Both the position numbers and the translations under genes were made by a program. From Thermoanaerobaculia bacterium (GTDB taxonomy: Bacteria; Acidobacteriota; Thermoanaerobaculia; UBA5066), in contig CAVRAY010000001.1 in assembly GCA_963719225.1 (NCBI GenBank), positions 1,984,001 through 2,048,000 of the forward strand: a stretch of DNA of 64,000 nucleotides, in the 5' to 3' direction. This document shows positions 6,447-57,662 of the stretch, in pieces (position 1 is the stretch's first letter; every line of letters starts with the position of its first letter). Under the pieces are notes generated by a model. It was not told the DNA's origin and did not search any database. It was given only the letters and a program-made list of their open reading frames with translations.

Positions 6447-8093
6447 TCAGCGTTCGGCGACCGTGAGGCCCGACCCCTTCAGGAATGCGGCGGCCGCCAT
6501 GGCCTTTTCACGGTTCGCCTTGTAGAGCGCCGAGTCCGGATCCTTCGCGAGCGCCTTCTCGAAGAAGGTCACCGCCTCCTCGTACCGGCCGCGCTCGTAG
6601 GCGATGGCGCCGGCCTCGTCGTCGAGCAGCCCCTTGTCGGGGGCGGTGGACCGCGCCAGGCTCTCGGCAGCTTCCTTCAGGGCGCCGGTCTGCCGCAACG
6701 CGCGGGCGAGCGCCCATGCGCCTTCGAGGTTCGCCGGGTCGCGAAGCACGGCTTTCCGGAGGGGCTCGACCGCCTCGGCGGCCTGTCCGCGCTCCAGGAG
6801 CAGCGAGCCGAGGCCGCGCAGGGCGGGGGCGTAGTCGGGATCGGAGCGGATCGCCTCGCGGTATTCCTTTTCGGCGTCCTTCCAAAGACCTTTTTTCCGA
6901 AGCGCCGAAGCGAGATTGGCGCGCACGATCTCGCGGTCCGGGTCGGCGGCCGCTGCCTTCATCAGCGGATCGAGCGCCGCGTCGACGTCGCGCGCCTGCA
7001 GGAGAACGATCGCGTATTCGGTCAGCACGGAAACGTCCTTCGGAGACGCCGCCGCTGCGGTCGCGAAGACCTGTCGGGCGTGCGCGAGATCTCCCTCCGC
7101 GTAGGCCTTCCGGCCGAGGGCGAGAAGCCGGGCGCCGTTCTGGGGATTCACCGCGGTGGCGCGCCGAAGGGCATCGAGGGCGGCCTCCCAGTTCTTGTCC
7201 CCGATCGAGAGCTCGTAGAGGTCGAGCAGCGCCCCTTCGTTCTTGTCGTTGTACTTGAGCGACTGCCTGAGCGTCGCCTCGGCGAAGGCCCTCTCCCCGC
7301 GCAGCGCATAGGCGTTCCCGAGGAGGCGATAGGCATCGCTCGACTGCGGGTCGATCTCGAGGAGGCGGTTTGCCGCCGACTGGGCATTCAGAGCGTCGCC
7401 GCGCGCGAGGGCGGCGCGGCCGAGAGAGAGGTAATCCGTCGCTGGTGCAGCAGGGGCGGCCGCGACGACGCCGGACTGAGGCCGCGCACCCGTGGGCGCA
7501 GCAGGGGAAGCCTTCGGAGAGTCCGGCCCGGAGGCGCGAACCTTCGCGGCCTCGGTGAACTTTCCCTGCTTCTCGTAGGCCTGCGCGAGGATGTCGAGGG
7601 CCTCGGCGTCGAGCTTCTCGCGCGGGACGTTGTAGAGGAGGTCGTGGATGACGTCCTCGGTATTGCCGTCCGCGAGCTTCTCCTTCGCGACACGTTTCAT
7701 CTCCCCGAGGTCAGCCTGGGGAGACGGCATCGCGGCGCGCGCGGCCGTGCTCACCTCCCCGGCGAGCTTGACGAAGTCCGGCGAGTAGAAATCGGGCACG
7801 ATCTCGAAGTCGGGGAGGGCGCCGAACGCGCGTCGAAGTGCCTCCTGAGCCTCGGATTTCTTTCCGTCGTTGAAGTGCGCCCAGGCGGCCTGGACGAGCA
7901 TGCGCGAGCGGCGACGCGGATCGCTCGCCGCCGAGGCAGAGCTCTCGAACTTGAGCGCGGCCTTCCGGAACTGGCCGGCGTTGACGGCCTTGCGCGCTTC
8001 CTTCTCGAGCGCCTCGGAGCCCTCCTGGGCGACGAGAGGCGCACCAAGGAGGAGAACCACCCCGACCGCTACGAGGATCAGGCGCGTCCGCAT
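6447..8093 (-). CDS. Secreted tetratricopeptide repeat protein
   Basis: Signal peptide followed by multiple TPR-like repeats. Confidence 0.85.
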   Translation of the reverse strand: MRTRLILVAVGVVLLLGAPLVAQEGSEALEKEARKAVNAGQFRKAALKFESSASAASDPRRRSRMLVQAAWAHFNDGKKSEAQEALRRAFGALPDFEIVPDFYSPDFVKLAGEVSTAARAAMPSPQADLGEMKRVAKEKLADGNTEDVIHDLLYNVPREKLDAEALDILAQAYEKQGKFTEAAKVRASGPDSPKASPAAPTGARPQSGVVAAAPAAPATDYLSLGRAALARGDALNAQSAANRLLEIDPQSSDAYRLLGNAYALRGERAFAEATLRQSLKYNDKNEGALLDLYELSIGDKNWEAALDALRRATAVNPQNGARLLALGRKAYAEGDLAHARQVFATAAAASPKDVSVLTEYAIVLLQARDVDAALDPLMKAAAADPDREIVRANLASALRKKGLWKDAEKEYREAIRSDPDYAPALRGLGSLLLERGQAAEAVEPLRKAVLRDPANLEGAWALARALRQTGALKEAAESLARSTAPDKGLLDDEAGAIAYERGRYEEAVTFFEKALAKDPDSALYKANREKAMAAAAFLKGSGLTVAER

Positions 8094-9845: not shown

Positions 9846-10496
9846 GTGCGGCGTCGCGTCCGGGAGCTCCTGACCGTTCTCGCGGCTGCGGGCGTCGGCT
9901 GCGGCTCACCCGACGCGAATCCGGCGGCGCCCTCGAGCGCGCCTGTCGCGCGCGCGGCCGAGGCGCGCGACGTCTATCGTCCTCCGGCCGACGGGCGCGT
10001 CACGACAGTCCAGGTGGAGATATTCCTGTCCGTTCTCGACCGCGTCCGCCTCGACCGGAGAGGGGAGAAACCCACCCCCGCCGGCGATCCTCTGTCGAGC
10101 GTTCCCGCCGACGTCGCCGCGGCCCGTGCTCGAGGCGTGAACGTCGAGGAGTTCCTCTGGGTCAAGGAGAGGGTGCTCGAAGCCGAGGCGGCGACCATGA
10201 CCGCCCGGCTCAACGCATCGGCTCTCGCGATGCTAGACAAGACGCTGGCCGACCTGAAGGCCCGGAGGTCGGACGCGGCGGACGAGGGGTCGCGAAAGCT
10301 CCTCGCAGAGCAGACGGCGCAGTTCGAGGCTGAAGCCGAACGGGTGCGCCGGGAGTCGAAGGTGCGCGAGAACGATGCCGTGCGCGCGAACATGAAGACT
10401 CTCGAGCCGTACCGCATGCGCCTCGCGGCGGCGCAGGACGCGCTCGAAAAGCCGCTTCTCAAGGAAGCGGAGAAGAAGAGCACCAAAGATTCTTAG
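9846..10496 (+). CDS. Hypothetical lipoprotein, helical
   Basis: Lipobox-like 'AAAGVGC'; GC3-rich codon usage; tight junction with the next gene. Confidence 0.7.
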   Translation: MRRRVRELLTVLAAAGVGCGSPDANPAAPSSAPVARAAEARDVYRPPADGRVTTVQVEIFLSVLDRVRLDRRGEKPTPAGDPLSSVPADVAAARARGVNVEEFLWVKERVLEAEAATMTARLNASALAMLDKTLADLKARRSDAADEGSRKLLAEQTAQFEAEAERVRRESKVRENDAVRANMKTLEPYRMRLAAAQDALEKPLLKEAEKKSTKDS

Positions 10497-10497
10497 A

Positions 10498-11367
10498 ATG
10501 GAGATACGGAGAGTCGGAATCCTGGGCGCGGGGCTGATGGGGTCGGGCATCGCGGAGGTGTGCGCGAAGGCGGGCTACGAAGTCGTCGTCCGTGAACCCA
10601 CGGACGAGCTGCTCGCGAAAGGGCGCAACCGCGTCACGCAATCCCTTTCTAAGGCAAGGCAGCGAGGCAAGCTGCGAGAAGAAGATGAATCCGCGATCCT
10701 CTCGCGGCTGCTCTTCTCCTCTTCACTCGAAGAAATCTCTTCTTCGGATCTCATCCTCGAGGCGATCGTCGAGAGCCTCCAGGCCAAGAAAGAGGCCTTC
10801 GAAGCACTCGACAAGTCGTGCGCGCCGCACGCGATCTTCTGCTCGAACACGTCGTCGCTGACGATCGCCGAGATTGCGGCGGCGACCGCGCGGCCGGATC
10901 GCTTCGCCGGATTGCACTTCTTCAACCCCGTCCCCGTGATGAAGCTCGTGGAGGTCGTGCGGGCGATCGGGACTTCCGACGAGACTCTCGCGCGCGTGAC
11001 GGCGTTCGCTCGAACCCTCGGCAAGGAGCCCATCGCGGCGCGCGACAACTCGGGATTCGTCGTCAACCGGCTGCTCGTGCCCTACCTTCTCGACGCGATC
11101 CGCGCGCACGAGCAGGGCGTGGGCACGCTCGAGGACGTCGATACCGGCATGAAGCTGGGCTGCGCGCAGCCCATGGGACCGTTCGAGCTTCTCGATTACG
11201 TCGGGCTCGACACCGTGTATGCGATCGCGGAGATCATGTTCACCGAGTATCGCGAGGCTCGCTTCGCGCCGCCGCCGCTGCTCAAGAGGATGGTGATGGC
11301 CGGGCGTTTTGGCAGGAAGTCGGGAAGGGGATTCTATGAATACGACGAGAAGGGGAACCGAAGATGA
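10498..11367 (+). CDS. hbd: 3-hydroxybutyryl-CoA (3-hydroxyacyl-CoA) dehydrogenase
   Basis: GAGLMGSGIA, SNTSSL, GLHFFNPVPVMKLVE, PMGPFEL. Confidence 0.93.
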   Translation: MEIRRVGILGAGLMGSGIAEVCAKAGYEVVVREPTDELLAKGRNRVTQSLSKARQRGKLREEDESAILSRLLFSSSLEEISSSDLILEAIVESLQAKKEAFEALDKSCAPHAIFCSNTSSLTIAEIAAATARPDRFAGLHFFNPVPVMKLVEVVRAIGTSDETLARVTAFARTLGKEPIAARDNSGFVVNRLLVPYLLDAIRAHEQGVGTLEDVDTGMKLGCAQPMGPFELLDYVGLDTVYAIAEIMFTEYREARFAPPPLLKRMVMAGRFGRKSGRGFYEYDEKGNRR

Positions 11368-17497: not shown

Positions 17498-18649
17498 TCA
17501 GCCAGGGATCCAGCTGTCGTGGTAGCCGGGGTGCTCGAGTGCGAGGGCCTGCTCCGTGAGGTGGAGCGGGACGAACGTGTCCATCATGACCGCGAGCTCG
17601 TCGGTCGACCGCGAGCCGATCGATCCCTCGTAGGCGCCGGGGTGCGGGCCGTGGGGAACCCCCGAGGGATGCAGGGAGACGGCCTTCGGCCCCACGCCCT
17701 TGCGGCTCGTGAACGTGCCGTCCACGTAATAGATGACCTCGTCGCAGTCGACCGAGGCGTGCGGGTACGGACACGGGATCGCGTCGGGATGCGTGTCCGT
17801 GACGCGCGGAACGAACGAGCAGATGAGCGCGTTGCGCGCGCCGAAAGTGGAGTGGATGGTAGGCGGAAGGTGGATGAGGCCGGTCTTCGGCTGGTACTTC
17901 CGGATGTCGAACGCGAAGGGCCAGACCGTGCCGTCCCACCCGACGACGTCGAACGGCGAGACGAGGGGAGCGCGTTCGACGAACGCGTCGTCCTTCTTGA
18001 CGAGGATGCGCTTCGGCCCGGAGCGCGGACCCTTGAAAACGGGCCGGACGAAGTCGCGGTGCGTGTAGGGGGCATCCATGCGCAGCTGGCCGACGGGATT
18101 TCTGAACTCGCGGGGCAGGTGTAGTCCGGCGCGCAGTTCAAAGAGAACTCCTTCGAAAGGCGAAGAGATCCGGAAACGCGCGACGACCCCGCGGGGCACG
18201 AGCACGTAGTCGTTCTTCCGGACCGGAAGATCTCCGAAGGGCGACTCCAGCGTTCCCTCACCTTCGTAGAAAAAATACAGGTCGTCCCCGTCGCCGTTGC
18301 TGAACCCGTCGGGGCTCTCCGCCTCCCGGGGCACCTTGAACAGCGAGACCGTCACGTCGGAGTTGAAGAGGATCGGCGTGAATCCCTCGGGGGCCTTTTC
18401 CCCGAGGACGAGGCGGCGGCGCAGCGGTTGATGCCCCGCGGGCCGGGGAACCTGCCGGTCGAACCGGCCGGGCTTCGCCGGGCCGATGAGGGTGTCCGTC
18501 ATCGGCGGCCCCTCGTGGTAGAGGATCGAGAACTCCCCGTCGAAGCCGCGGCGTGTCAGGCACTCCTCGTAGCGCAGCGCCCCGGACGAGGAGCGAAACG
18601 CGGTGTGCGGCTTCGGAGGCACCTCCCCGAGCTGCATCCGATCGATCAT
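17498..18649 (-). CDS. hmgA: Homogentisate 1,2-dioxygenase
   Basis: NGDGD, PFDVVGWDG, HLPP, PYPH, HPSGVPHGPHPG, ELAVMMDTF; downstream of hppD. Confidence 0.92.
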   Translation of the reverse strand: MIDRMQLGEVPPKPHTAFRSSSGALRYEECLTRRGFDGEFSILYHEGPPMTDTLIGPAKPGRFDRQVPRPAGHQPLRRRLVLGEKAPEGFTPILFNSDVTVSLFKVPREAESPDGFSNGDGDDLYFFYEGEGTLESPFGDLPVRKNDYVLVPRGVVARFRISSPFEGVLFELRAGLHLPREFRNPVGQLRMDAPYTHRDFVRPVFKGPRSGPKRILVKKDDAFVERAPLVSPFDVVGWDGTVWPFAFDIRKYQPKTGLIHLPPTIHSTFGARNALICSFVPRVTDTHPDAIPCPYPHASVDCDEVIYYVDGTFTSRKGVGPKAVSLHPSGVPHGPHPGAYEGSIGSRSTDELAVMMDTFVPLHLTEQALALEHPGYHDSWIPG

Positions 18650-19809
18650 CAGCCCACGACCTCGAGAGCGGGGGAGGCCTCACGCTGCGTCGCCTCGATG
18701 GATTCGAAGAGCGCGCGGAAGTTCCCGTACCCGAACCCGCGGTCGCCCTCGCGCTGGATGATCTCGTAGAAAAAGGGCCCGGCTTTCTCGTCGCCGTACA
18801 TCGCCATGGCGTCGAGCATGAAGATCTGGAGCATGTACTTGTCGTCGGCGCCGTCCAGGAGGATGTGGTTGCGCCTCAGAGCGTCCATCGGCTCCTTGAC
18901 GTTCGTGATCTTCACGTCCTCGAGGCGCTTCGGCAGCCTGTCGTAATAGGCCCCGGGTGCTTTCAGGAACTGAATGCCATGCTCGCGAAGGGCCTCGACC
19001 GCGGGAATGATCTCCTTCACGAGGAACGCGATGTGCTGCACGCCCGCGCCGTGATGGTCCTCGCAGAAACGATTGATCTGGCTGTCGCGGAAGAACGGCC
19101 GCATGGGCTCGTTCGTGGCGAGCTTCACGCCGCTCTCGGGATCGGCCATGACGATGGAGCGCAGGCCGGAGCCGGCGAGCCGCTTGCCCGTCCCCATCTC
19201 GGCGGTGTGGAACTCGACGTCCCAGTAGTGCGTGAACCCGAGGACGTCGCGATACCAGTTGACGACGGGCAGCATCGTGTAGGCGTTCGACGTCACGTGG
19301 TCGATCGTCGCGAAGCCGTGCGGGTTCTCGCGCGGCTTCCCGTCACCCACGTCGTCGAAATCAGGGGCGAAGCGCGGGTAGGTCCCTTGCCGCTCGATGA
19401 ACCGGAACGTGACGTCGTCGAGCGGCGTCGCGATGTTGAACGTCTTGAAGGTGCCGCCCGGAGCCTCGTCCACCGCGATGTCCGACAGAAACGTGGCGTT
19501 GCGCGCGGCGAGGAAATCCCAGGCGCCCTGGATGTCGCGCACGCGGAACGCGAGCGAGGAGATGCCGTCGGGATGGATCCTCAGGAAGCGGGCGGCGCGC
19601 GAATCTTTGCGCTCGGGGCTGGAGACGAGCACCCGGATCTGCCCGGCACCGAAGACGGAGGCCACCTCGCCCCCTTTTTCGATCTTCGAGGCGGACGCGC
19701 GCGCCACCTCGGAGAAGCCGAGCCCCGCGTAAAACCCGCGGCTCCGCCCGAGATCGGCCACGACGAAGTGGAACGAGTCGTAACCCACGATGCCGAGCGA
19801 ATCGACCAT
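18649..19809 (-). CDS. hppD: 4-hydroxyphenylpyruvate dioxygenase
   Basis: IDHVT, GVQHIAF, LQIF, FFYEIIQREGDRGFGYGNFRALFESIE. Confidence 0.95.
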   Translation of the reverse strand: MVDSLGIVGYDSFHFVVADLGRSRGFYAGLGFSEVARASASKIEKGGEVASVFGAGQIRVLVSSPERKDSRAARFLRIHPDGISSLAFRVRDIQGAWDFLAARNATFLSDIAVDEAPGGTFKTFNIATPLDDVTFRFIERQGTYPRFAPDFDDVGDGKPRENPHGFATIDHVTSNAYTMLPVVNWYRDVLGFTHYWDVEFHTAEMGTGKRLAGSGLRSIVMADPESGVKLATNEPMRPFFRDSQINRFCEDHHGAGVQHIAFLVKEIIPAVEALREHGIQFLKAPGAYYDRLPKRLEDVKITNVKEPMDALRRNHILLDGADDKYMLQIFMLDAMAMYGDEKAGPFFYEIIQREGDRGFGYGNFRALFESIEATQREASPALEVVG

Positions 19810-19869
19810 AATGCGATCTTAGTCCGCGGGAGCGCCGGGCGGGAAGATCGACCCGGCGGGGAAGGCGCG

Positions 19870-21165
19870 ATGGATCCGCAACGCCTCGTGTATGACTGGA
19901 ACCGCGCAGGAGGGGAGGGCCGGCCCCGCCACGTTCCCGTCGAGCTCGTCGACGAAACTCTTCGGGACGGTCTTCAGTCTCCGTCGGCTGTCGCGCCGAC
20001 GCTCGACGAGAAGTTCGACCTTCTCGTCTTGATGGAGCGCCTCGGCGTGGATACGGCCGTCATCGGGATTCCCGCCGCGGGCGGCAGCTCCGTCTCGGAC
20101 CTGTCGTGGCTCGTCCGGCGCATGACGGATTCGGGGCTTTCGCTCCGGCCGTGCTGCGCGGCGCGCACGCTCACGTCCGACATCGAGCCGATCATCGAGA
20201 TCTCCCAGGACACGGGCCGGGAAATGGAGATGACGACGTTCATCGGGTCTTCGCCGATCCGCCAGTACGTCGAGGACTGGGACCTCTCGCGAATGATGAA
20301 GCTCACCCGGGACGCCGTGTCGCTCGGTGTCCGCAACTCCCTTCGGGTCACCTTCGTCACCGAGGACACGACGCGCGCCCGCCCCGAGGACCTCGTCTCG
20401 CTCTACGGGACCGCTATCGCCGCTGGCGCCAGCCGGATCTGCGCCTGCGACACCGTGGGCCATGCAACGCCCGAAGGTGCCGCGGCGCTCGTCGGCTTTC
20501 TGGCGGAGTTCGTGGCGCGCGAGAACCCGGACGTGCTCATCGACTGGCACGGTCATGAAGACCGCGGACTCTCCGTCGCGAACTCGCTGGCCGCCCTGCG
20601 GGCCGGCGCGCACCGGGTGCACGGCTGCGGGCTGGGAGTCGGCGAGCGCGTCGGGAACACGCCGCTCGACCAGCTCCTCGTGAACCTCCAGCTCCTGGGC
20701 TGGATCGACCGCGACCTGTCCGCCCTCGCGACCTACGTCGGAAAGGTCTCCAGCTACCTGAAAGTCCCGGTCCCCGACGGGTACCCGGTGGTCGGCCGCG
20801 ACGCCTTCCGGACAGGGACCGGCGTCCACGCCGCGGCGATCGTCAAGGCCCGCGCGAAGGGCGACGACTGGCTCGCGGACAGGATCTACTCGGGTGTGCC
20901 CGCGGCCATGGTGGGCCTGACCCAGCTCATCGAGGTGGGACCGATGTCCGGCGAATCGAACGTGTTCTTCTGGCTGCGGGCTCGCGGCATCGACCCGACC
21001 CCGAGCCGGGTTGCCGCGCTCTACCGGGCCGCGAAGGCGTCCGACCACGTGCTTTCGGAGCCGGAAATCCGCACGGTGCTCTCGGCCCTGCCGGACGCGG
21101 GCGCCTCCGGGGTGTCCGCCCTCGAAGGCTCCCTGAACGAAACGCGAAAGGCTCTGCTTCCGTAG
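19870..21165 (+). CDS. LeuA/homocitrate synthase-like DRE-TIM acyltransferase lacking a C-terminal regulatory domain
   Basis: DETLRDGLQ, HGHEDRG, GERVGN motifs; 431 aa. Confidence 0.85.
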   Translation: MDPQRLVYDWNRAGGEGRPRHVPVELVDETLRDGLQSPSAVAPTLDEKFDLLVLMERLGVDTAVIGIPAAGGSSVSDLSWLVRRMTDSGLSLRPCCAARTLTSDIEPIIEISQDTGREMEMTTFIGSSPIRQYVEDWDLSRMMKLTRDAVSLGVRNSLRVTFVTEDTTRARPEDLVSLYGTAIAAGASRICACDTVGHATPEGAAALVGFLAEFVARENPDVLIDWHGHEDRGLSVANSLAALRAGAHRVHGCGLGVGERVGNTPLDQLLVNLQLLGWIDRDLSALATYVGKVSSYLKVPVPDGYPVVGRDAFRTGTGVHAAAIVKARAKGDDWLADRIYSGVPAAMVGLTQLIEVGPMSGESNVFFWLRARGIDPTPSRVAALYRAAKASDHVLSEPEIRTVLSALPDAGASGVSALEGSLNETRKALLP

Positions 21166-21166
21166 A

Positions 21167-22102
21167 ATGGCCCGAGTGAGTTCGGGATCTCCTGCCAAAG
21201 CGCCGGCCGGCGTCTTCTTTCAAAGGCACCTCCCGCTCTTCCTCGACTATCTCTCGGCGGAGAAAGGTCTCGCCCCGAACACGTTGGAGGCCTATCGCCG
21301 TGACCTTGCTGGATTTGGCCGGTTTCTCGCCTCGTCGCGCACGAATCCCGCGGGCGTCACCCGGCGGGACATCGTCGCGTTTCTCGGCGCGCGGCGCGCG
21401 GACGGCATGTCACCGCGGACGCTGGCGCGGGTGACTTCGGCCCTGCGGGGCCTCTACGGGTTCCTGGCGGCGGAGAAGGTCCTCGAGGCCGACCCCACGG
21501 CCGACCTCACGAATGCCCGCCGGTGGGCGATGCTTCCGAAGGTGCTGTCGCCCGAGGACGTGACGCGCCTTCTCGACGCGCCCGACGTCGCGACGCCGAG
21601 GGGCCTGCGAAACCGCGCTCTTTTCGAGCTGCTCTATGCGTGCGGCCTGCGCGTCTCCGAGCTCGCGGAGCTCCCCGTCGAGGCGCTCCGTCTCCCCGAG
21701 GGGTTTCTCGTCGTCCGCGGAAAAGGCTCGAAAGAGCGCGTCGTGCCGATCGCCGACTCGTCCGCCCGCTGGGTCGCGCGCTACCTCGAAGCGCTTCGGG
21801 CCGAAAAACCGGGCGCGGCGACGAGATGGGTCTTCCCCGGCGGACGCGGAAAGCCGATCACCCGGCAGACGGTCTTTCTCGCTCTGAAAGCCGCCGCGCG
21901 AAAAGCCGGCCTGCCGGCGGCCTCGGTGTCCCCGCACGTCCTGAGGCATGCGTTCGCGACGCATCTGGTGGATAATGACGCCGACCTGCGCGCCGTGCAG
22001 ATGATGCTCGGCCATGCGGACATCGCGACGACCGAGATCTACACGCATGTGTCCCGCTCCCGTGTCCGGAAGGTCTACGACCGGACGCACCCGCGGGCAT
22101 GA
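21167..22102 (+). CDS. xerD: Site-specific tyrosine recombinase XerD
   Basis: LLYACGLRVSEL, GKGSKERVVP, SPHVLRHAFATHL, DLRAVQMMLGHADIATTEIYTHV, HPRA C-terminus. Confidence 0.93.
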   Translation: MARVSSGSPAKAPAGVFFQRHLPLFLDYLSAEKGLAPNTLEAYRRDLAGFGRFLASSRTNPAGVTRRDIVAFLGARRADGMSPRTLARVTSALRGLYGFLAAEKVLEADPTADLTNARRWAMLPKVLSPEDVTRLLDAPDVATPRGLRNRALFELLYACGLRVSELAELPVEALRLPEGFLVVRGKGSKERVVPIADSSARWVARYLEALRAEKPGAATRWVFPGGRGKPITRQTVFLALKAAARKAGLPAASVSPHVLRHAFATHLVDNDADLRAVQMMLGHADIATTEIYTHVSRSRVRKVYDRTHPRA

Positions 22103-49789: not shown

Positions 49790-51118
49790 CAGGCTGCTGA
49801 AAAAGGGCTCCTGAAAATCGCGGCGAGGCATTGACTGCTGCGCGATGCGGCTGCACCTTGATGTGCATGCGTGGAGACAACGAAAAGCAGGTCGATCTTG
49901 TCGTGACGATGACGCCCGAGGAGCTCGTGCCGCGGGACCACCCGATCCGCAAGGTGAAGGCGCTTGCAGACGAAGCGCTCAGGCGTCTCGAGCCCAAGCT
50001 CGCCAGGCTGTACTCGGAGCGAGGGCGTCCATCGATTCCGCCCGAGATGCTTCTCAAGGCGCAGATCCTCATCGCGCTGTACAGCGTGAGAAGCGAGCGG
50101 CTCTTCTGCGAGCGGCTCGGGTACGACTTTCTCTTCCGCTGGTTCCTGGACATGCCGGGGCTTGCACCGGCCTTCGATCCGACGACCTTCTCGAAGAACC
50201 GCCAGAGACTGTTGGAGGCCGAGGTCTTCGAGGAGTTCTTCTCGGAAGTCGTCGCACAGGCCCGCAAGAAGTTTCTTCTCTCGGACGAGCACTTCACCGT
50301 GGACGGCACGCTGATCGAAGCGAACGCCTCCTTGAAGAGCTTCCAGCCCCGGAAGGACAAGGACGGTAAGGGCGGCGATGAGCCGCCAGCTCCTGGCGGC
50401 CGCAACGCCGATGTCGACTTTCGCGGCCAGAAGAGGCGCAACGACACGCACGCCTCGACGACCGATCCCGACGCCAAGCTCTACAAGAAGGGAGACGGCC
50501 AGCCTTCGCAGCTGTGCTACCTCGGCCACGTCTTGATGGAGAACAGAAACGGACTGTGCGTGAAGGCGCGCGTAACGACGGCCGACGGCTACGGGGAGAG
50601 GTCGGCCGCACTGGGCATGGTCGACGAGCTGGGCTCGGACAAGCGCATCACGCTGGCCGGCGACAAGGGCTACGACACGAGGGATTTCATCGAAAGGCTC
50701 CGAGAGAGAGGCGTCACGCCCCACGTGGCCCAGAACACCACCAACAGGCGCAGCGCCATCGACCGAAGGACGACGAGACACGCGGGCTACGCCGTGAGCC
50801 AGCGAATCAGGAAGCGCGTCGAAGAAATCTTCGGCTGGAGTAAGACCATCGGAGGCCTGGCCAAGACGCGCTTCCGAGGACTCGCCCGCGTGGCGGCTCA
50901 CGTCCTCAGCGTGATGACGGCCTACAACCTCGTCCGAATGGCGCGAATGGAGTCCTCGACCGCCTGATTCCCCCTGAAGCGCCCCTCGGTGCGACCGAAG
51001 CGGGCCGAAAAAGGCGAGCAGCACGGACTCACTCTCTCGAAGCAATCCCCTCTTTCAGCTTGACGTGTCTTCTCCCGCTCAAGCTCCTTTGAAAAAGAGC
51101 CCTTTCTTCAGCAGCCTG
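49790..51118 (+). mobile_element. IS5-family insertion sequence, 1329 bp, CTAG target duplication
   Basis: IRL caggctgctgaaaaagggctc (49790-49810); IRR gagccctttcttcagcagcctg (51097-51118); CTAG at 49786-49789 and 51119-51122. Confidence 0.95.
49867..50967 (+). CDS. IS5 family DDE transposase
   Basis: GRPSIPPEMLL, FTVDGTLIEA, AGDKGYD, RKRVEEIFGW. Confidence 0.95.
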   Translation: MRGDNEKQVDLVVTMTPEELVPRDHPIRKVKALADEALRRLEPKLARLYSERGRPSIPPEMLLKAQILIALYSVRSERLFCERLGYDFLFRWFLDMPGLAPAFDPTTFSKNRQRLLEAEVFEEFFSEVVAQARKKFLLSDEHFTVDGTLIEANASLKSFQPRKDKDGKGGDEPPAPGGRNADVDFRGQKRRNDTHASTTDPDAKLYKKGDGQPSQLCYLGHVLMENRNGLCVKARVTTADGYGERSAALGMVDELGSDKRITLAGDKGYDTRDFIERLRERGVTPHVAQNTTNRRSAIDRRTTRHAGYAVSQRIRKRVEEIFGWSKTIGGLAKTRFRGLARVAAHVLSVMTAYNLVRMARMESSTA

Positions 51119-53416
51119 CTAGGTCCTCACTCCGAGCAGGCCCCACGCCGCACCGAGGCCGAAGAAAACGTTCGGAGCCCAGGCCGCGAGGAACGGCGGG
51201 ATCGCCCCCTGCTGCCCGAAGGAGACGAGGAGCGCGGACAGGAAGAGGTACGTGAGGCCGAGGAAGAGCGCGACGCCGACTCCGGCCACGGCGCCGCGCT
51301 TGCCGTACGTGAACGCGAAGGGGAGTCCGATGAGTGTCAGGAGAAGGGCGGACGCGGCCGCCGCGGTCTTCTGGTGGAGACCCGTCGCGAGCGCGGCCGT
51401 GTCGGCGCCGACCTTGCGACGCACGTCGATGAACCGGGACAGTTCGCGAAACGTCATCTGACGCGGGTCCGCACGCCCCGCTGCGAAGCCCGCCGCGGCC
51501 TCTGGAGCTTCGATGAAGAAGGGACCGTCGCGCCGGATGGCCAGCGAGTTGTCCGGCGAGAACGTCCGGATCCAGCCGCGTTCCGCGAGAAGGCCTCTCC
51601 CGGGCGCGAGGCGCGCGAGGGCTGCGTCCTGGCGCGAGACGAGCTTCCAGGTCGCCGGGTCGATTTGAAGCACGGTGACGCCGCTCGCGACGAGCGACAC
51701 GGGGTCGTACGCATCCGCCGCGAGAAAGCGGCCGCCGTCGCCTCGGAACCAGGACCCGCTTGCGCCGCTGACCGGCGGCTTCTGGCCTTTGAGCAGGAAG
51801 CGAATCCGGTCGGACTCGGACGCGGCCGCCGGAACGACACGCTCGGCGAACACGAAAAGCCCTGCTCCCGCGGCGACGGCGAGGACGAGGAGGGGGGCCG
51901 TGATCCGATGAAGGGAAACGCCGTGCGCCAGGAGCGCGGTCGTCTCGGAGGAGCGCACGAGGCTCGCGACCGTCACGAGCGCCGCCACGAGAAACGCGAA
52001 CGGCACGATGTCCAGAATGATCGGCGGGAGAAATGCCTGGTAGTAACGGAGGATGAGCGCGGTCGGAGACCGGTGCCGCGCGATGTCGTCGGAGATCTCG
52101 AGGTAATCGATCAGGACGTAAAGCGTTGCGATCGATACGACGACGAGAGCGAAGATTCCGAGAAACCGCCGGGCGACGTACCGGTCGATGAGGAGAATTC
52201 CCCTGAGGGAAGCGCGCCGCCCTTGGACGCTCGGGACGTCGAGAGAGGGCTGACCCGGGGCGGCGGCGATGGCCGAAACGGCGGGAGCGACCACCGTCGT
52301 GGGAAGCGAGAACACGGCCTTGTCCCGCCGCACGCGTGAGAGCGCGAAAACGCCGAACGCCAGGAGGAGGAGGTTCGGCAGCCACATGGCGAGAGCCGGG
52401 GAGGTGCTTCCCTCGATCGCGCGGGCCTCGCCCGTGGCGAGAAGAGAGTAGTAGAGCAGCACGATCGCGACCGAGACCGCGAACCCTGCAGCCCGCCCGC
52501 CTCGCCGGTTGACGATTCCGAGAGGGAGCCCGATGAGGCCGAAGACGAGGCAGGCCGCGGGCAACGCGAACTTCTTGTGGACCTCGGTGAGCGCGAGCCT
52601 GCGGTCCTCGGGCCGCCGGGTGCTCGCCGCGGCTCGCTCCAGGAGCTCGCGGAGCGTCTGCTCGCGAATCTGTTTCTCCGTCACGCCGCGCGACGGCCCG
52701 TTGTCCTGCAGCACCATGCGGTGACGCGAGAAGGACGTCACGTCGTATCGGCCGCCGGCGTCCTGCACGTGGTGGGTTTCGGCGTCCTCGACGCTCAGCC
52801 AGAGACGACCCTGGTCCTCCTCCAGCTCGAGCCAGCCTCGCTTCGCGAGCGTCAGCCTTTCACCTTCCGGGCTGGAGCGGTCTGAAATGATGAGGCCCGT
52901 GAGCTCCCGGCGATCGGGCGAAGCCCCCTCGGCGTAGACGCGGAGACCGGCGATTTCCGGGCTGAAGACACCTGGTTGGATCCGCTGGGCGAAGGCGAAG
53001 CTCGAGAGGCGGAGCTTCATCCCGTAGAGCAGGTGGTTTGTCCGCGGGACGACACCGAGCATCAGCGCCAGGGTGGCCGCGCCGATGCCCACGGCCAGGA
53101 AGCCGATCGGCCGGTAGAGGGACAGGAGATCGACGCCCGAAGCGCGGAGCGCCGTCAGCTCGAGGTCCGCCGATAGGCGGCCGATCCCGATCAGGAGGCC
53201 GAGGAGGAAGGCGATGGGCAGCGTGAGGACGATGATGTGAGGGAGCGAGAGGGCGACAACCAGCCCGGCCTCGACGAAAGGTTGCTCGCTCTGTACGAGG
53301 AGCTCCGAGAACTGCACGAGCCCCCGGACGGCCATAAACCCCGTGTAGGCGAGGAAGCCCACGATCGTGGGCGCGAGAACCTCCCGGAAGACATAACGGT
53401 CCAGCAGCCGCCGCAC
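51119..53416 (-). CDS. lptFG: Fused LptF/LptG LPS export permease
   Basis: Two tandem YjgP/YjgQ halves (LLDRYVFRE...WLPN; LIDRYVARR...WAPN). Confidence 0.92.
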   Translation of the reverse strand: MRRLLDRYVFREVLAPTIVGFLAYTGFMAVRGLVQFSELLVQSEQPFVEAGLVVALSLPHIIVLTLPIAFLLGLLIGIGRLSADLELTALRASGVDLLSLYRPIGFLAVGIGAATLALMLGVVPRTNHLLYGMKLRLSSFAFAQRIQPGVFSPEIAGLRVYAEGASPDRRELTGLIISDRSSPEGERLTLAKRGWLELEEDQGRLWLSVEDAETHHVQDAGGRYDVTSFSRHRMVLQDNGPSRGVTEKQIREQTLRELLERAAASTRRPEDRRLALTEVHKKFALPAACLVFGLIGLPLGIVNRRGGRAAGFAVSVAIVLLYYSLLATGEARAIEGSTSPALAMWLPNLLLLAFGVFALSRVRRDKAVFSLPTTVVAPAVSAIAAAPGQPSLDVPSVQGRRASLRGILLIDRYVARRFLGIFALVVVSIATLYVLIDYLEISDDIARHRSPTALILRYYQAFLPPIILDIVPFAFLVAALVTVASLVRSSETTALLAHGVSLHRITAPLLVLAVAAGAGLFVFAERVVPAAASESDRIRFLLKGQKPPVSGASGSWFRGDGGRFLAADAYDPVSLVASGVTVLQIDPATWKLVSRQDAALARLAPGRGLLAERGWIRTFSPDNSLAIRRDGPFFIEAPEAAAGFAAGRADPRQMTFRELSRFIDVRRKVGADTAALATGLHQKTAAAASALLLTLIGLPFAFTYGKRGAVAGVGVALFLGLTYLFLSALLVSFGQQGAIPPFLAAWAPNVFFGLGAAWGLLGVRT

Positions 53417-53440: not shown

Positions 53441-53458
53441 AAGATTCTCTTAGAAGGG
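53441..53458 (-). repeat. TTCTAAG-core motif, dif-left pair, copy A
   Basis: Reverse complement CCCTTCTAAGAGAATCTT. Confidence 0.85.
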
Positions 53459-53511
53459 AATATGGCGGGCGAGCGCAGTCCGGATGGCGAGCCTGGTGCG
53501 GGCGGCCCAGG

Positions 53512-53527
53512 CACCTTCTAAGGAATC
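53512..53527 (+). repeat. TTCTAAG-core motif, dif-left pair, copy B
   Basis: CACCTTCTAAGGAATC. Confidence 0.85.
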
Positions 53528-53567
53528 CCCGGTGCTCGTTTCGGTCGGATTCCCACGCCAATGTACA

Positions 53568-53595
53568 ACGTCCGATAATATTTATTATGTTAAAT
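53568..53595 (+). other. dif: dif site (XerC/XerD chromosome dimer resolution)
   Basis: ACGTCCGATAA-TATTTA-TTATGTTAAAT: 11-6-11 layout, XerD arm identical to E. coli dif; intergenic AT-rich island at the gene-orientation convergence. Confidence 0.93.
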
Positions 53596-53690
53596 ATTAG
53601 ATGACCCTTGCCTAATGAAATAAGGCGACCCTCGCGGGCCCGCACTTCCCTGCGCACGCCGACAAAAATCGATGCGCAAGACGTGAGGGA

Positions 53691-53707
53691 GTATTTCTTA
53701 GAAGGTG
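53691..53707 (-). repeat. TTCTAAG-core motif, dif-right pair, copy A
   Basis: Reverse complement CACCTTCTAAGAAATAC. Confidence 0.85.
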
Positions 53708-53766
53708 AATGAGTAGGAAGGCTCTGGGGATCTCGCAGAGCGCTTCGGTGTGCGGGGGCTCCACGT

Positions 53767-53784
53767 ACCCTTCTAAGAGATCTT
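53767..53784 (+). repeat. TTCTAAG-core motif, dif-right pair, copy B
   Basis: ACCCTTCTAAGAGATCTT. Confidence 0.85.
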
Positions 53785-53864: not shown

Positions 53865-54770
53865 CTATTTCTTCGCCTTGACCGCTTTCGCCTTCACAAA
53901 GCGACCCTGCGTCTCGAGGTCGATATCTCCCGCTTCGATCCGCCGTGCGAGATCGCGGATCGCCTCGAGGATTTCATCCTTCTTGTGGAGGCGGCCCTTG
54001 AGGACGAGGCTCACCTTGTAGCGCTTGTCCTCCGGAGCAAAGTCGAGCGTGTACGCTCTCTTCAGTCCGCCCAGCTTCGAGCTGGTGCCGCGTCGCGCGT
54101 CCTTCTTCACTTCGCGCAGGACGTCGCGGCTCAGCGTGTCGCCGTTCGCCAGCGCCATGACGGCGGCGAGCATGAGGTCTTCGTCCTTCAGTCTTCCAAG
54201 CTCGAGCAGGAACGATCTTGACCCGATGTCGGCACGCCGACATTCGGCCTGAACGCGCTCGGGAAGCCTCGCAATCGACAAGGCTTCCGTGATCGTCACG
54301 CGCGACTTCCCCACGGCATCCGCGATCTGCTCGTGCGTGTAACCGTGGCGCTCCTGTAGAGCCTTGTAGCCGTCCGCTTCCTCGAACGGGCTCAGGTCCT
54401 TGCGCTGGAGATTCTCGACGAGCGCGATCTCGAGCAGCTCGTTGTCGGCAACGTCCATCTCGATGCAGGGAATCTCCGAGAGACCCGCTTCGAGGGACGC
54501 GCGAAAGCGCCTCTCTCCCGAGATGATCGTGAAGCGCCCGTCTCCCCGTGGACGCACGAGAATCGGCTCGAGGACGCCCTTGTCCAGGATGGATTTCGTT
54601 AGGTCGGCGAGGTCGCCCATAGCGCTTCGAGGCTGATCGGGATTTGCCTCGATGAGATGGATCGGGATACGACGACCGACCGGCAGTTCGTCGGCGCGGA
54701 CGAGCTGCTCGACGAAATGCGAGTCGTGGCGCATGCGCGAAGTCTCGGGAAGGCCGCGGCGTTTAGACAC
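53865..54770 (-). CDS. parB: ParB/Spo0J-family CTPase with atypical DNA-binding region
   Basis: NPDQPR, GVLEPILVR, ISGERRFRA, ALVENLQRKDL; HTH 'THEQIADAVGKSRVTITEAL'. Confidence 0.92.
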   Translation of the reverse strand: MSKRRGLPETSRMRHDSHFVEQLVRADELPVGRRIPIHLIEANPDQPRSAMGDLADLTKSILDKGVLEPILVRPRGDGRFTIISGERRFRASLEAGLSEIPCIEMDVADNELLEIALVENLQRKDLSPFEEADGYKALQERHGYTHEQIADAVGKSRVTITEALSIARLPERVQAECRRADIGSRSFLLELGRLKDEDLMLAAVMALANGDTLSRDVLREVKKDARRGTSSKLGGLKRAYTLDFAPEDKRYKVSLVLKGRLHKKDEILEAIRDLARRIEAGDIDLETQGRFVKAKAVKAKK

Positions 54771-55524
54771 GAGAGAGGATCTCCTCCGTCAGGCTGTAGT
54801 ACTCGAGCGCGCCTGACGAGCGCGGAGCGAATGTGAAGATGGATTCCCGATACGCCGGCGATTCCTCCAGCCGGATGGACTTCGAGATCGTCGTCTTGAA
54901 GAGCTTTCCCTTGAAGACCTCGTTGATCTGGCTCTGAATGTCCTTGCCGAGCGTCGTCCGCTTGTCGTGAAGCGTGATCACGACACCCAGGATCTGGAGA
55001 TTCGGATTCGGCCGGCTCTTGATCTTCTCGATCGTCTCGAGGAGATCATCGGTCCCTTCGAGCGCGAAGTACGAAGACTGAATCGGAATCAGGATGTGCG
55101 TCGAGGCGACGAGGGCGTTCACCGTGATCATGCCGAGCGTGGGCGGCGTGTCGATGAGGATCGCGTCGTATTCGCCCGACTCGCGCACGACCTGGAGCTT
55201 GTCCTTCAGCCGGAAGTGCCCGTCGAGTTCGCCGAGGAGCTTCGACTCCACCTTCGCGAGCGAGATGCGCGCAGGCGCGACCGTCAGCTTCGGGAGGCTC
55301 GTCTGCTTGACGATGTCGAAGAACGATACGCTCGGGTCGGTGAGCACGTCGTACATCGACTTTTCCACGTCCTTGCGATCCACGAAAGACATCGTGGAGT
55401 TGCCCTGGGGATCCAGGTCGATGAGCAGCGTCCGGAGACCTTTTTGCGCAAGAGCCGCTGCGAGATTGATCGCGGTGGTGGTCTTCCCCACTCCGCCCTT
55501 CTGATTTGCAACGGTGATGATCAT
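54763..55524 (-). CDS. parA: ParA/Soj-family ATPase
   Basis: NQKGGVGKTTT deviant Walker A, IDLDPQGN, IDTPPTLG. Confidence 0.95.
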   Translation of the reverse strand: MIITVANQKGGVGKTTTAINLAAALAQKGLRTLLIDLDPQGNSTMSFVDRKDVEKSMYDVLTDPSVSFFDIVKQTSLPKLTVAPARISLAKVESKLLGELDGHFRLKDKLQVVRESGEYDAILIDTPPTLGMITVNALVASTHILIPIQSSYFALEGTDDLLETIEKIKSRPNPNLQILGVVITLHDKRTTLGKDIQSQINEVFKGKLFKTTISKSIRLEESPAYRESIFTFAPRSSGALEYYSLTEEILSRV

Positions 55525-55596: not shown

Positions 55597-56082
55597 TCAC
55601 ATCCGGTACTTGCCGAGGGTGTCGGGATCGGCTTCCTCGAGCCACTTCTTGAGACGTTCCGCGTTCTGCGCTTCGGCGGTGTCCTCGCCGCTCCGGCTCA
55701 TCTCGAGAACCGACTCCTCCACGAAGACCGGCGCCTGGAGCCGGAGCGCGAGCGCGATCGCATCCGACGGGCGGCTGTCGACGAGGACGTCCTTGTTCGC
55801 GACGCGGAGGTGAATCTGGGCGTAGAACGTGTTTTCCTTGAGGCTGTTGATCACGACGCGCAACACGTTGCCCTCGATCTGGGTGATGAGGTTCTTCAGG
55901 AGGTCGTGCGTCATCGGCCTCGGCGTCGTCACGCCTTCCATTTGAAGAGCGATGGCATTCGCCTCGAAGACCCCGACCCAGATCGGCAGAAAGTTCTTCT
56001 CCTCGGCGTCCCGCAGGATCACGACCGGCATGTTTGCGATCGGATCGACGATGAGCGCTTTCACATCCATTTTGACGCTCAA
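55597..56082 (-). CDS. Bifunctional nuclease family protein (DUF151)
   Basis: LPIWVGVFEANAI, PRPMTHDL, DSRPSDAIALA; RBS AGGAG 8 nt before TTG. Confidence 0.92.
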   Translation of the reverse strand: MSVKMDVKALIVDPIANMPVVILRDAEEKNFLPIWVGVFEANAIALQMEGVTTPRPMTHDLLKNLITQIEGNVLRVVINSLKENTFYAQIHLRVANKDVLVDSRPSDAIALALRLQAPVFVEESVLEMSRSGEDTAEAQNAERLKKWLEEADPDTLGKYRM

Positions 56083-56220: not shown

Positions 56221-56306
56221 AAGACTTCTTAGAAAGTGCCCGTGCCGGAGTCAGCGCCGGTGGCGAGCGTGCTACGGCCGCGCTCGTAGACCCTTCTAAG
56301 AGGATT
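56221..56306. repeat. TTCTAAG-core motif inverted pair upstream of the DUF151-parAB operon
   Basis: CTTAGAA 56228-56234 (contains the miaB stop) and TTCTAAG 56294-56300. Confidence 0.8.
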
Positions 56307-57662
56307 CTCTTCTCCCTCTTCGACCGCTTCTCTTCTTCCGAGCAAAGAATTCGGAAATCCCCGCTCGATCCGCACGTTCACGAGCGTGCCTGGTTTGAGA
56401 TCCGATTCCCCCGCGATGTTGACGACGCGGTTGCAGCGCGATCGGCCGGAGCTGATGCGCCGTCTTCGATCGAGCCCTTCCACGAGCACCTCGAGAACGC
56501 GACCCTCCATCTCGCCGTTCACCTGCCGCTGGATCTCCTGCTGGATCGACATGAGGCGGGCGAGTCGGGCAGACGCCACACGCGGCGTGACGTCGTGCTC
56601 CCAGCGCAGCGCGGCAGTCTGCGGGCGAGGCGAATACGTGAAAGAGAAGACGCCGGCGAACCTCACCTCTTCGAGGAGCGAGAGCGTGGCGGCAAAGTCT
56701 TCGTCCGTCTCGCCGGGGAACCCCACGATCACGTCGGTCGAAAGCGCCAGGTTGGGGATGGCATCGCGAAGAGACGCCGCGAGGTCGAGGTATTCCGCGC
56801 GCGTGTACTGGCGCTTCATGCGGCGCAGCACCGCGTCGGAGCCGGACTGGACCGGCAGGTGCAGCGCGGGAACGACCACGGGCGTCTCGGCCATCGCGGC
56901 TATGAGGCGCGCGGAGAAATTGCGCGGGTGGGACGTCACGAATCGGAGGCGCCGGAGACCCGGCAGAGCGCCGACCGCGCGCAGCAGGTCGGCGAGATCC
57001 TCCCCGGTCTCGGGGTCGCGGAACGCATTCACGGTTTGTCCGAGAAGCTCGATCTCCAGAGCTCCCTCGTCGATCAGGCGACGGGACTCGTCCACGACGT
57101 CGTTGAGTCGCCGATTACGTTCGCGCCCGCGCGTGCGGGGAACGACGCAGAACGTGCAGTTCTTGTTGCAGCCCTCGATGACGGTGATCGCGGCGCGATA
57201 CGGCACCGAGCGTGCGATCGCGCCGGGGGTGTAGACGACCTCGTCCGGATCGAAGCCTGTCTCGCAAGGTCGGTCTTCCTCTTCTTCGACCCGGCGCAGA
57301 ACCGACGGCAGGGCCTCGATGCGTCCCGTACCGAGCACGAAATCGACCTGCGGCAACCGCTCGAGCAGCTTCTCCCCTTCCTGCTGCGCAACACAGCCGC
57401 AGACGCCGAGCACCGTCTCCGGGCGCTCTCGCTTCAGTTTCGCGAGACGCCCGAGACGGTCGTAGACCTTCTGCTCGGCCTTGTCGCGAACGGAGCACGT
57501 GTTCAGGAGGATCACGGCGGCTTCCTCGGGCGACGCGACTTCCGAGAACCCTTCACGCGCGAGGAGCCCGACGAAACGCCTCCCGTCGAGAACGTTCATC
57601 TGGCAGCCCCAGGTCTCGACGAAGACTTTTCGGGCCGCGCGGCGGAAGGTAGGAACGCTCAC
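56229..57662 (-). CDS. miaB: tRNA-2-methylthio-N6-isopentenyladenosine synthase
   Basis: TWGCQMN, NTCSVRDKAEQK, GCNKNCTFC, HLPVQSGS, TRAM domain. Confidence 0.97.
   Translation of the reverse strand: MSVPTFRRAARKVFVETWGCQMNVLDGRRFVGLLAREGFSEVASPEEAAVILLNTCSVRDKAEQKVYDRLGRLAKLKRERPETVLGVCGCVAQQEGEKLLERLPQVDFVLGTGRIEALPSVLRRVEEEEDRPCETGFDPDEVVYTPGAIARSVPYRAAITVIEGCNKNCTFCVVPRTRGRERNRRLNDVVDESRRLIDEGALEIELLGQTVNAFRDPETGEDLADLLRAVGALPGLRRLRFVTSHPRNFSARLIAAMAETPVVVPALHLPVQSGSDAVLRRMKRQYTRAEYLDLAASLRDAIPNLALSTDVIVGFPGETDEDFAATLSLLEEVRFAGVFSFTYSPRPQTAALRWEHDVTPRVASARLARLMSIQQEIQRQVNGEMEGRVLEVLVEGLDRRRRISSGRSRCNRVVNIAGESDLKPGTLVNVRIERGFPNSLLGRREAVEEGEENPLRRVYERGRSTLATGADSGTGTF

Follow-up and report, generated by a model that had tools for sequence, protein, structure and literature searches.

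The parA2-parB2 operon studied here belongs to a second ParABS system of the chromosome, which lies opposite the pair at the origin, and it represents a conserved, apparently undescribed ParABS variant that is situated at the terminus and has a candidate site of its own. The window, meaning the whole stretch of 64,000 nucleotides that was analysed, comes from the source genome G000 (4.75 Mb in two contigs, C1 and C2; 97% complete, 6% contamination), and its relevant features, numbered from the first letter of the window, are as follows.

21167..22102, plus strand: xerD (TIGR02225, 334.2 bits; cut-off, 329.6), separated from the dif-like site by 31 kb
51119..53416, minus strand: fused lptF-lptG, one 765-aa ORF, the conserved downstream neighbour past dif
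53449/53516, 53697/53771 (span 53449..53777) and 56228/56294, unstranded: TTCTAAG inverted pairs, the first two flanking dif
53568..53595, plus strand: dif-like site, ACGTCCGATAA-TATTTA-TTATGTTAAAT, 28 bp, 269 bp past the parB2 stop
53865..54770, minus strand: parB2, GTG start, 301 aa, ParB family
54226..54243, unstranded: candidate parS2, ATGTCGGC-AC-GCCGACAT, inside parB2, with its 16-bp core at 54227-54242
54763..55524, minus strand: parA2, a 253-aa Soj-type ATPase with KGGVGKTT and DLDPQ and no N-terminal HTH
55597..56082, minus strand: bfn, bifunctional-nuclease domain (PF02577), conserved upstream neighbour
56229..57662, minus strand: miaB, conserved upstream neighbour

The parA2 gene overlaps the start of parB2 by 8 bases, and the usual gene order is miaB-bfn-parA2-parB2-dif-lptFG, with miaB and bfn present in 80/102 wide loci. 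An SMC gene is also present in the source genome. The window further contains an insertion-sequence transposase (DUF772 + DDE_Tnp_1; 49831-50967) 2.6 kb from dif and, directly before xerD, an 870-aa ORF (18553-21165) whose isopropylmalate/homocitrate-synthase-like domain is confined to the C-terminal half (463-829). A third ParA-like ATPase of the source genome (C1:390,214-390,948) is 33% identical to ParA2 and has no ParB match adjoining it.

ParB2 is a member of the family that combines the ParB-CTPase fold with an HTH, and it has the Box I-III motifs. Domain profiles placed PF02195 (ParB_N) at residues 33-122 and PF17762 (HTH_ParB) at 124-207, and the score against TIGR00180 was 147 bits (cut-off, 58). 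The original prediction, which had noted a retained CTP motif, was borne out in that GERRFRA (85-91) and ENLQR (119-123) are both present and the CTP-motif residues are invariant; Q46, E86, R87, R88, E119, N120, R123, and R157 did not vary among the orthologues (n = 101 aligned). From these conserved motifs, we infer that ParB2 is a CTP clamp, and it should be considered that, according to the text of a ParB-fold survey, nucleotide choice is not reliably predictable from sequence in this fold (10.1101/2025.10.10.680097). The altered HTH, helix, and N-terminus described in the same prediction were also found in place: GKSRVTITEALSI at 154-166, SRSFLLEL at 184-191, and KRRGLP (3-8) followed by MRHDSHFV (13-20). 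In Caulobacter numbering, for which the register was taken from the Spo0J alignment, position 178, N in canonical ParBs, is E in 101/101 orthologues; position 204, canonically R, is L, I, or M in 101/101 (L in this ParB2); and position 201 is K or R in 100/101 and G in 0/101 (G201 to R in this ParB2). R173 is kept in 101/101, and positions 179 and 184 are variable. The canonical ParBs in the same alignment have N178 in 9/9, G201 in 8/9, and R204 in 8/9. Because the HTH changes are fixed across 101 aligned orthologues, they do not represent drift in a single genome. The N-terminal motif KRRGLP..MRHDxHFV is clade-specific and present in 93/97 ParB2 proteins, and the ParA-binding motif LG[R/K]GL (10.1101/2025.10.10.680097) is not intact in ParB2, G[RK]GL being found in 49/53 canonical ParBs.

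The AlphaFold model of ParB2 (45-row alignment) had a pLDDT of 85.4, with residues 1-30 at 54-67, a low-confidence helix at residues 19-26, and a small C-terminal domain predicted as two strands plus a helix. It matched Noc and ParB structures, the top Foldseek match being 7nfu (E 4.6e-15, TM 0.57). The gene is intact and under purifying selection, with dN/dS values of 0.03-0.12 against 19 congeners.

The position of the operon on the chromosome was determined relative to the canonical system, which in the source genome comprises parAB at C2:333,862-335,416 and a perfect parS at C2:333,827. The dnaA gene (C2:325,785-327,053) is 7 kb away, and the neighbours of the canonical pair are what we take by eye to be yidC, mnmE, mnmG, and rsmG before it and atp genes after it. 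Cumulative GC skew is lowest at C2:368,581, near which canonical parAB, parS, and dnaA all lie, and reaches its maximum at C1:2,098,827; parB2 is at C1:2,038 kb, and it and dif are 61 kb from this maximum. In nine near-complete replicons, which were picked for having both markers on one long contig (parS replaced parB1 in G042 and G107, and C1 of G168 was counted as a whole replicon), the distance from parB2 to parB1 or parS was 0.45-0.50 of the contig. There were two exceptions to this opposite placement: G019, in which parB1 and parB2 are 0.74 Mb apart in a 3.9-Mb assembly, and G118, in which they are 73 kb apart and parB2 is an orphan without parA, dif, or the site. The latter (L075, G118 C5:427 kb) is deep-branching, lacks the N-terminal motif, and has S at 201, and it possibly represents a decayed or ancestral state of ParB2. 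At the canonical locus L021, parS (7827-7845) and the earliest potential start codon of the canonical parA overlap; no other near-perfect parS lies by the origin in the source genome, and the canonical ParB there has S201 rather than G.

The 28-bp site downstream of parB2 is a predicted dif, the site of chromosome dimer resolution, as judged by its two arms, single copy, position near the skew switch, and the presence of xer. The arm consensus used was that of E. coli dif. With a matrix built without genomes of the source genus, it scored 41.1 bits and was the single such site in the source genome, the next best match being at 14.8. Generally, dif is located near the GC-skew switch (PMC3025954). 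The ParB2 loci fetched covered 40 of 83 outside the genus and order, long contigs being preferred. A dif site was found downstream of parB2 in 20/20 loci of the genus, in 44/56 wider loci, which were the matrix training set, and in 27/46 held-out loci (23 within 1 kb), compared with 0/53 loci of canonical parB; it was absent beside parB2 in the other 19/46 held-out loci, some of which are truncated. A dif-like match lies 37-39 kb from parB2 in G042, G084, and G168, and none was found in G071 and G107, two genomes of family f26. In G168, a second dif-like match is present on the other contig (C2:533,269), suggesting two replicons. A search of the source genome at 50 and 300 kb for a terminus-enriched, matS-like 8- or 10-mer yielded none that stood out.

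ParB2 is present in 87 of 151 Acidobacteriota genomes, each at least 95% complete. The 87 matches have E values of 1.3e-44 or lower and are mostly close to full length, whereas no canonical ParB scored better than 1e-39. The remaining 64 genomes were negative (G147 with a fragment only and three without any ParB match), so that ParB2 is dispensable at the scale of the phylum. Among the best 80 of 605 matches in a scan of named genomes, 46 were ParB2 loci, titled Thermoanaerobaculia, Vicinamibacteria, Blastocatellia, Acidiferrales/Terriglobia, Polarisedimenticolia, Aminicenantes, or Acidobacteriota and, in one case, 'bacterium'; the remaining 34 came from ParBs outside the phylum. In trees with canonical chromosomal ParB, one part of the phylogeny named as a check in the original prediction, ParB2 stood apart, on its own side of a branch with SH 98 (FastTree, 143 rows) and 100/100 (IQ-TREE, 51 rows: 26 vs 25), and ParA2 also formed its own clade (SH 98, 139 rows). 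These trees are unrooted and contain neither Noc nor plasmid sequences; near-duplicate genus and Collinsella rows and truncated or frameshifted ones were left out. Host families group together within the ParB2 tree. A ParB of a gammaproteobacterial MAG (L123:6001-6726), which adjoins parA and has E178 and K201 but Q173, fell near ParB2 on a long branch, without dif or the site, its placement being unsure; it may be distantly related to the clade, in a different phylum. A literature search at the level of abstracts, with subscription journals mostly outside it, found no description of a terminus ParABS or of ParAB2, and the site spellings had 0 full-text matches. The main text of the ParB-fold survey (10.1101/2025.10.10.680097) does not mention Acidobacteria, and these ParB2 proteins are probably included in the 80,326 homologues of its supplementary tables.

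The new DNA target that had been anticipated for this ParB was strongly indicated, and a canonical parS was found near 1/122 ParB2 loci compared with 46/53 canonical loci. Near parB2 itself, neither a canonical parS nor a Noc box was found. The top dyad of an unsupervised search in 53 loci was ATGTC-N8-GACAT, seen 32 times against 0.63 expected, and the signals nested in it spell a full palindrome, the candidate parS2 consensus (A)TGTCGGC-NN-GCCGACA(T), which in the source genome coincides with codons C177-R-R-A-D-I182 of parB2. The strict palindrome occurs once in the 4.75-Mb source genome, with 0.06 copies expected per spacing, and other arm spacings of 0 to 12 gave no copy there. The strict pattern was present in 68/87 ParB2-positive but only 1/64 ParB2-negative genomes, and a reversed control in 1/151; the genomes are kin, so these counts overstate independence and show a pattern rather than a P-value. 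The sole ParB2-negative genome with a strict site, G092, has no parB within the fetched 10 kb. G025 is one row in the genome tallies; without it, the count becomes 67/86 and the sister-family genomes mentioned below become 15, and no claim depends on it. A position weight matrix matched the palindrome in 25/46 held-out loci and 0/53 canonical loci. Over the training and held-out loci, the palindrome lay in the gene in 42, upstream in 19 (most of these 60-260 bp before the parA2 start), and downstream in 9.

The palindrome is constrained as DNA, the synonymous positions of CRRADI being frozen. Within the same genes, TGT was used as the Cys codon in 40/45 cases at the motif versus 31/152 elsewhere, and CGG as the Arg codon in 41/45 versus 721/2790. 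Furthermore, only 6 of 133 conserved codons never varied among 35 sequences, and 4 of them are inside the site. When CRRADI is missing from the protein or written in other codons, a copy of the palindrome is frequently found outside the gene, either upstream of parA2 or downstream of parB2. CRxAD occurs without the strict palindrome in 8 proteins, for 5 of which a copy is present upstream of parA2. The possibility that the palindrome is a by-product of the protein sequence was ruled out by the codon use and the intergenic copies. Taken together, it is likely, from comparison of the sequences, that ParB2 docks on TGTCGGC-NN-GCCGACA, and we are highly confident that ParAB2 and this site make up a cognate system at the terminus.

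The strict site is missing from 19 of the 87 ParB2-positive genomes. In genomes G066, G091, G151, and G186 of family f33, one-mismatch copies were not above the control; in the three of them whose loci were read, dif is nearby and the ParB2 HTH signature is the usual one. A search for a shared alternative dyad in 32 site-less ParB2 loci gave none that was convincing. In five site-less genomes, one-mismatch copies form clusters of 2-5 within 3-12 kb (24 matches vs 8 in the control). Such clusters lie away from parB2 in G188 (C16:354-361 kb), G191 (C6:39-52 kb), G189 (C1:218-223 kb), and G190 (C84 and C129), genomes that were reached via loci titled Acidiferrales, Acidoferrum, or Acidobacteriota, and the clustered copies in them are often altered at the outermost base. 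L068 has a variant perfect palindrome, ATGTCGACATGTCGACAT, in the usual upstream position, 824 bp upstream of the parB2 start.

The candidate site can be compared with the specificity code of ParB and Noc, in which R173Q and G201R convert ParB from recognising parS to recognising the Noc site, at bases 1 and 6, R201 reads C6:G-6, and N178 and R204 make contacts common to ParB and Noc (Jalal 2020, PMC7383237). When the site bases are numbered by our own reckoning from the Noc box, base 1 of the candidate site is G, as in parS, and base 6 is C, as in the Noc site. The residues of ParB2 would fit this arrangement, R173 with G1 and K/R201 with C6. At bases 3-5, TTC is replaced by CGG, alongside the fixed N178E and R204L, a link that we infer.

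As for the role of the system, we consider it fairly probable, on the basis of gene position and sequence, that a terminus-dedicated ParABS positions or separates the dif region, with canonical ParABS handling the origin, and active positioning of the terminus seems, to a similar degree, to be its main job. By analogy with ParABS, ParB2-CTP would load at the palindrome as a closed sliding clamp, extend across dif and the neighbouring DNA, and ratchet on ParA2-ATP at the nucleoid; stimulation of ParA2, as distinct from that of ParA1, may depend on the KRRGLP..MRHDxHFV N-terminus. The dif region would thereby be brought to the division plane, or sister termini would be drawn apart after XerCD resolution. 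With odds put slightly above even, the chromosome of many Acidobacteriota would have two orthogonal centromeres, of which the one at dif is served by a dedicated CTP-clamp/ATPase machine that actively positions the last-replicated DNA and maybe sets the division plane, in a phylum with no match to MinE.

It is also conceivable, although rather unlikely, that the main purpose of ParAB2-parS2 at the terminus is not DNA movement but the placing or timing of the division ring, a task that MipZ-ParB and PomXYZ perform by other routes. ParA2 has many clade-fixed surface substitutions (AKLE, EGTDDLLE, and EESPAY being fixed in the clade), which may form a new partner interface, and the source genome has no match to the Noc box within 2 mismatches. 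MinE had no match in 151/151 genomes of the phylum (the control matched in 4/14), but it is equally absent from ParB2-negative genomes, so that its absence does not discriminate; as a correlate of ParB2 loss, MinE was likewise uninformative (0/151). A division-ring role is opposed by the finding that ParA2 shares 44% identity with the Soj-type ParA of the same genome and scores 45 bits for MipZ versus 191 for AAA_31, and that parA2 is still translationally coupled to parB2.

Since there is typically one site per genome, with many copies in or just before the operon, an autoregulatory operator would look alike. ParB2 might accordingly be regarded as a KorB-like CTP-dependent regulator, with the palindrome as its operator and the adjacency to dif as inherited synteny, and the usual single copy, either upstream of parB2 (19) or in or just after it, is in line with this; we nevertheless hold it to be improbable. 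The palindrome lies 44-51 kb from the locus in G072, G085, G097, and G108, and it forms groups over 50-130 kb around the parB2 locus in G122, G129, and G168; in G129 (6.49 Mb, one contig), 5/5 copies are at 875-1,005 kb with parB2 at 928 kb, and in G168, 4/4 copies are within 53 kb, around parB2. ParA2, moreover, is retained in 121/122 ParB2 loci, where parA adjoins parB2, and six lineages that have lost the miaB-bfn neighbours (L043, L063, L067, L068, L094, and L102) have dif at most 60 bp from the stop of parB2. These arrangements argue against a regulator.

We regard it as still less credible that the operon is a remnant, the partition cassette of a plasmid or of a second replicon that fused at dif, retained without a role specific to the terminus. 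Xer-mediated fusion would leave a cassette directly beside dif, and secondary replicons typically have private sites, both of which agree with what is found here. Against such a relic, the operon is flanked by core genes whose order is conserved (miaB and bfn), host families cluster in the ParB2 tree, and dN/dS is low, as described above; furthermore, among the plasmid and phage matches listed, identity is 31-44% at best, which does not exceed that of ordinary ParBs, and none is a close relative of ParB2. Fusion of a plasmid or second replicon could, however, be the origin of the system, though not its present state.

The target put forward in the original prediction, TTCTAAG, was not upheld: the motif is confined to the genus, whereas sister families share the ParB2 HTH signature. 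Its observations of the protein stood, and dif, the terminus location, and the canonical origin system had been missed. TTCTAAG has 11 copies in the window and 384 spread over the genome. Of 80 close pairs, 65 are inverted; most copies belong to inverted pairs, whose members are separated by 35-290 bp, with 71-75 bp the commonest distance. The repeat arm is about CCYTTCTAAGAAGATC, approximately 20 bp, around unrelated GC-rich spacers, and is seen also at window positions 10492-10653 and 56228-56300. The extended form CYTTCTAAGAA has 50-329 copies per genome throughout the genus (25/25 genomes), whereas 16 genomes from two sister families have 0-2 each; 15 of these 16 genomes have ParB2, with the HTH signature unchanged in all 11 aligned. 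The motif is denser in the terminus half, with 77 copies within 400 kb of dif versus 11 in the farthest, partial bin, and control words binned in the same way gave 44 versus 15. It resembles REP/REPIN repeats, and a Y1/RAYT transposase that might explain it was sought in the source genome and not found. TTCTAAG is a separate, genus-specific dispersed repeat and not part of the ParB2 system. The reading in which ParB2 binds it genome-wide as a Noc-type nucleoid marker has next to no probability, even though the motif is near-palindromic, has four copies flanking dif and parB2, and is denser towards the terminus. ParB2 and its HTH signature span the phylum, whereas outside the genus nearly every locus has TTCTAAG once or not at all near parB2, and the inverted pairs, with their unrelated spacers, have the appearance of a dispersed repeat.

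ParABS is taught as a machine of origins and plasmids, with the terminus left to FtsK-XerCD, or to MatP or ZapT in a few proteobacteria. If the terminus-dedicated reading is true, a full ParABS fixed at dif in more than half of the genomes sampled from an abundant phylum of soil bacteria would represent a different mode of ending the cell cycle, and in many lineages a centromere would be encoded inside the gene of its own reader protein. The combination of R173 with K/R201, reading G1 and C6, would provide a natural third point for the ParB/Noc specificity code, and the system is a candidate orthogonal ParB-parS pair for locus labelling. The claim is testable in E. coli and in vitro, since each of its elements is specified: the site, the two proteins, and the contacts predicted between them.

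Among known systems, chromosomal ParABS (Soj/Spo0J-parS; Thermus Spo0J, 1vz0; Caulobacter ParB, 6t1f; Myxococcus ParB, 7bnk) shares with ParAB2 the parA-parB operon and the Soj-type ATPase, and its ParB shares ParB_N plus HTH_ParB, the Q, GERR, and ENxxR motifs, and R173; by sequence, 1vz0 is the best solved-structure match of ParB2 (E 7.9e-39). Canonical parS and candidate parS2 are both 16-bp TGT...ACA palindromes in or near the operon. ParAB2 differs in being at dif, additional to the canonical pair, and in a separate clade, in the candidate site TGTCGGC-NN-GCCGACA versus canonical parS TGTTYCACGTGRAACA, in N178E, G201K/R, and R204L, and in having KRGLP..MRHDxHFV for LG[R/K]GL. Noc of Firmicutes (7nfu, 6y93) is, as ParB2 probably is, a ParB paralogue with switched specificity, and it has in common with ParB2 a basic residue at 201 and, in the candidate site, C at base 6, whereas it has Q173 with K179/K184 rather than R173 with no fixed K179/K184, and it is an orphan, ParB2 having its own ParA; against the Noc model TIGR04285, ParB2 scored 144.7 bits (cut-off, 315). 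Noc sites are numerous and avoid the terminus, whereas the candidate sites of ParB2 number one to five and are at the terminus. ParABS of secondary replicons and plasmids (Vibrio ParAB2-parS2, RepAB, KorB-IncC) is, like the present ParAB2, a second system with a private site, but ParAB2 is on the main chromosome amid core genes in conserved order; KorB (8qa8) matched ParB2 at E 3e-13, and the ParAB2 pair scored 54.8 bits for the RepB model (cut-off, 201.5) and 101.7 for the RepA model (cut-off, 348). Finally, MatP-matS of E. coli and ZapT of Caulobacter involve proteins that are specific to a sequence or a region and dedicated to the terminus, as proposed for ParB2, although these are not NTPases, have no ParA partner, and have folds unrelated to that of ParB2.
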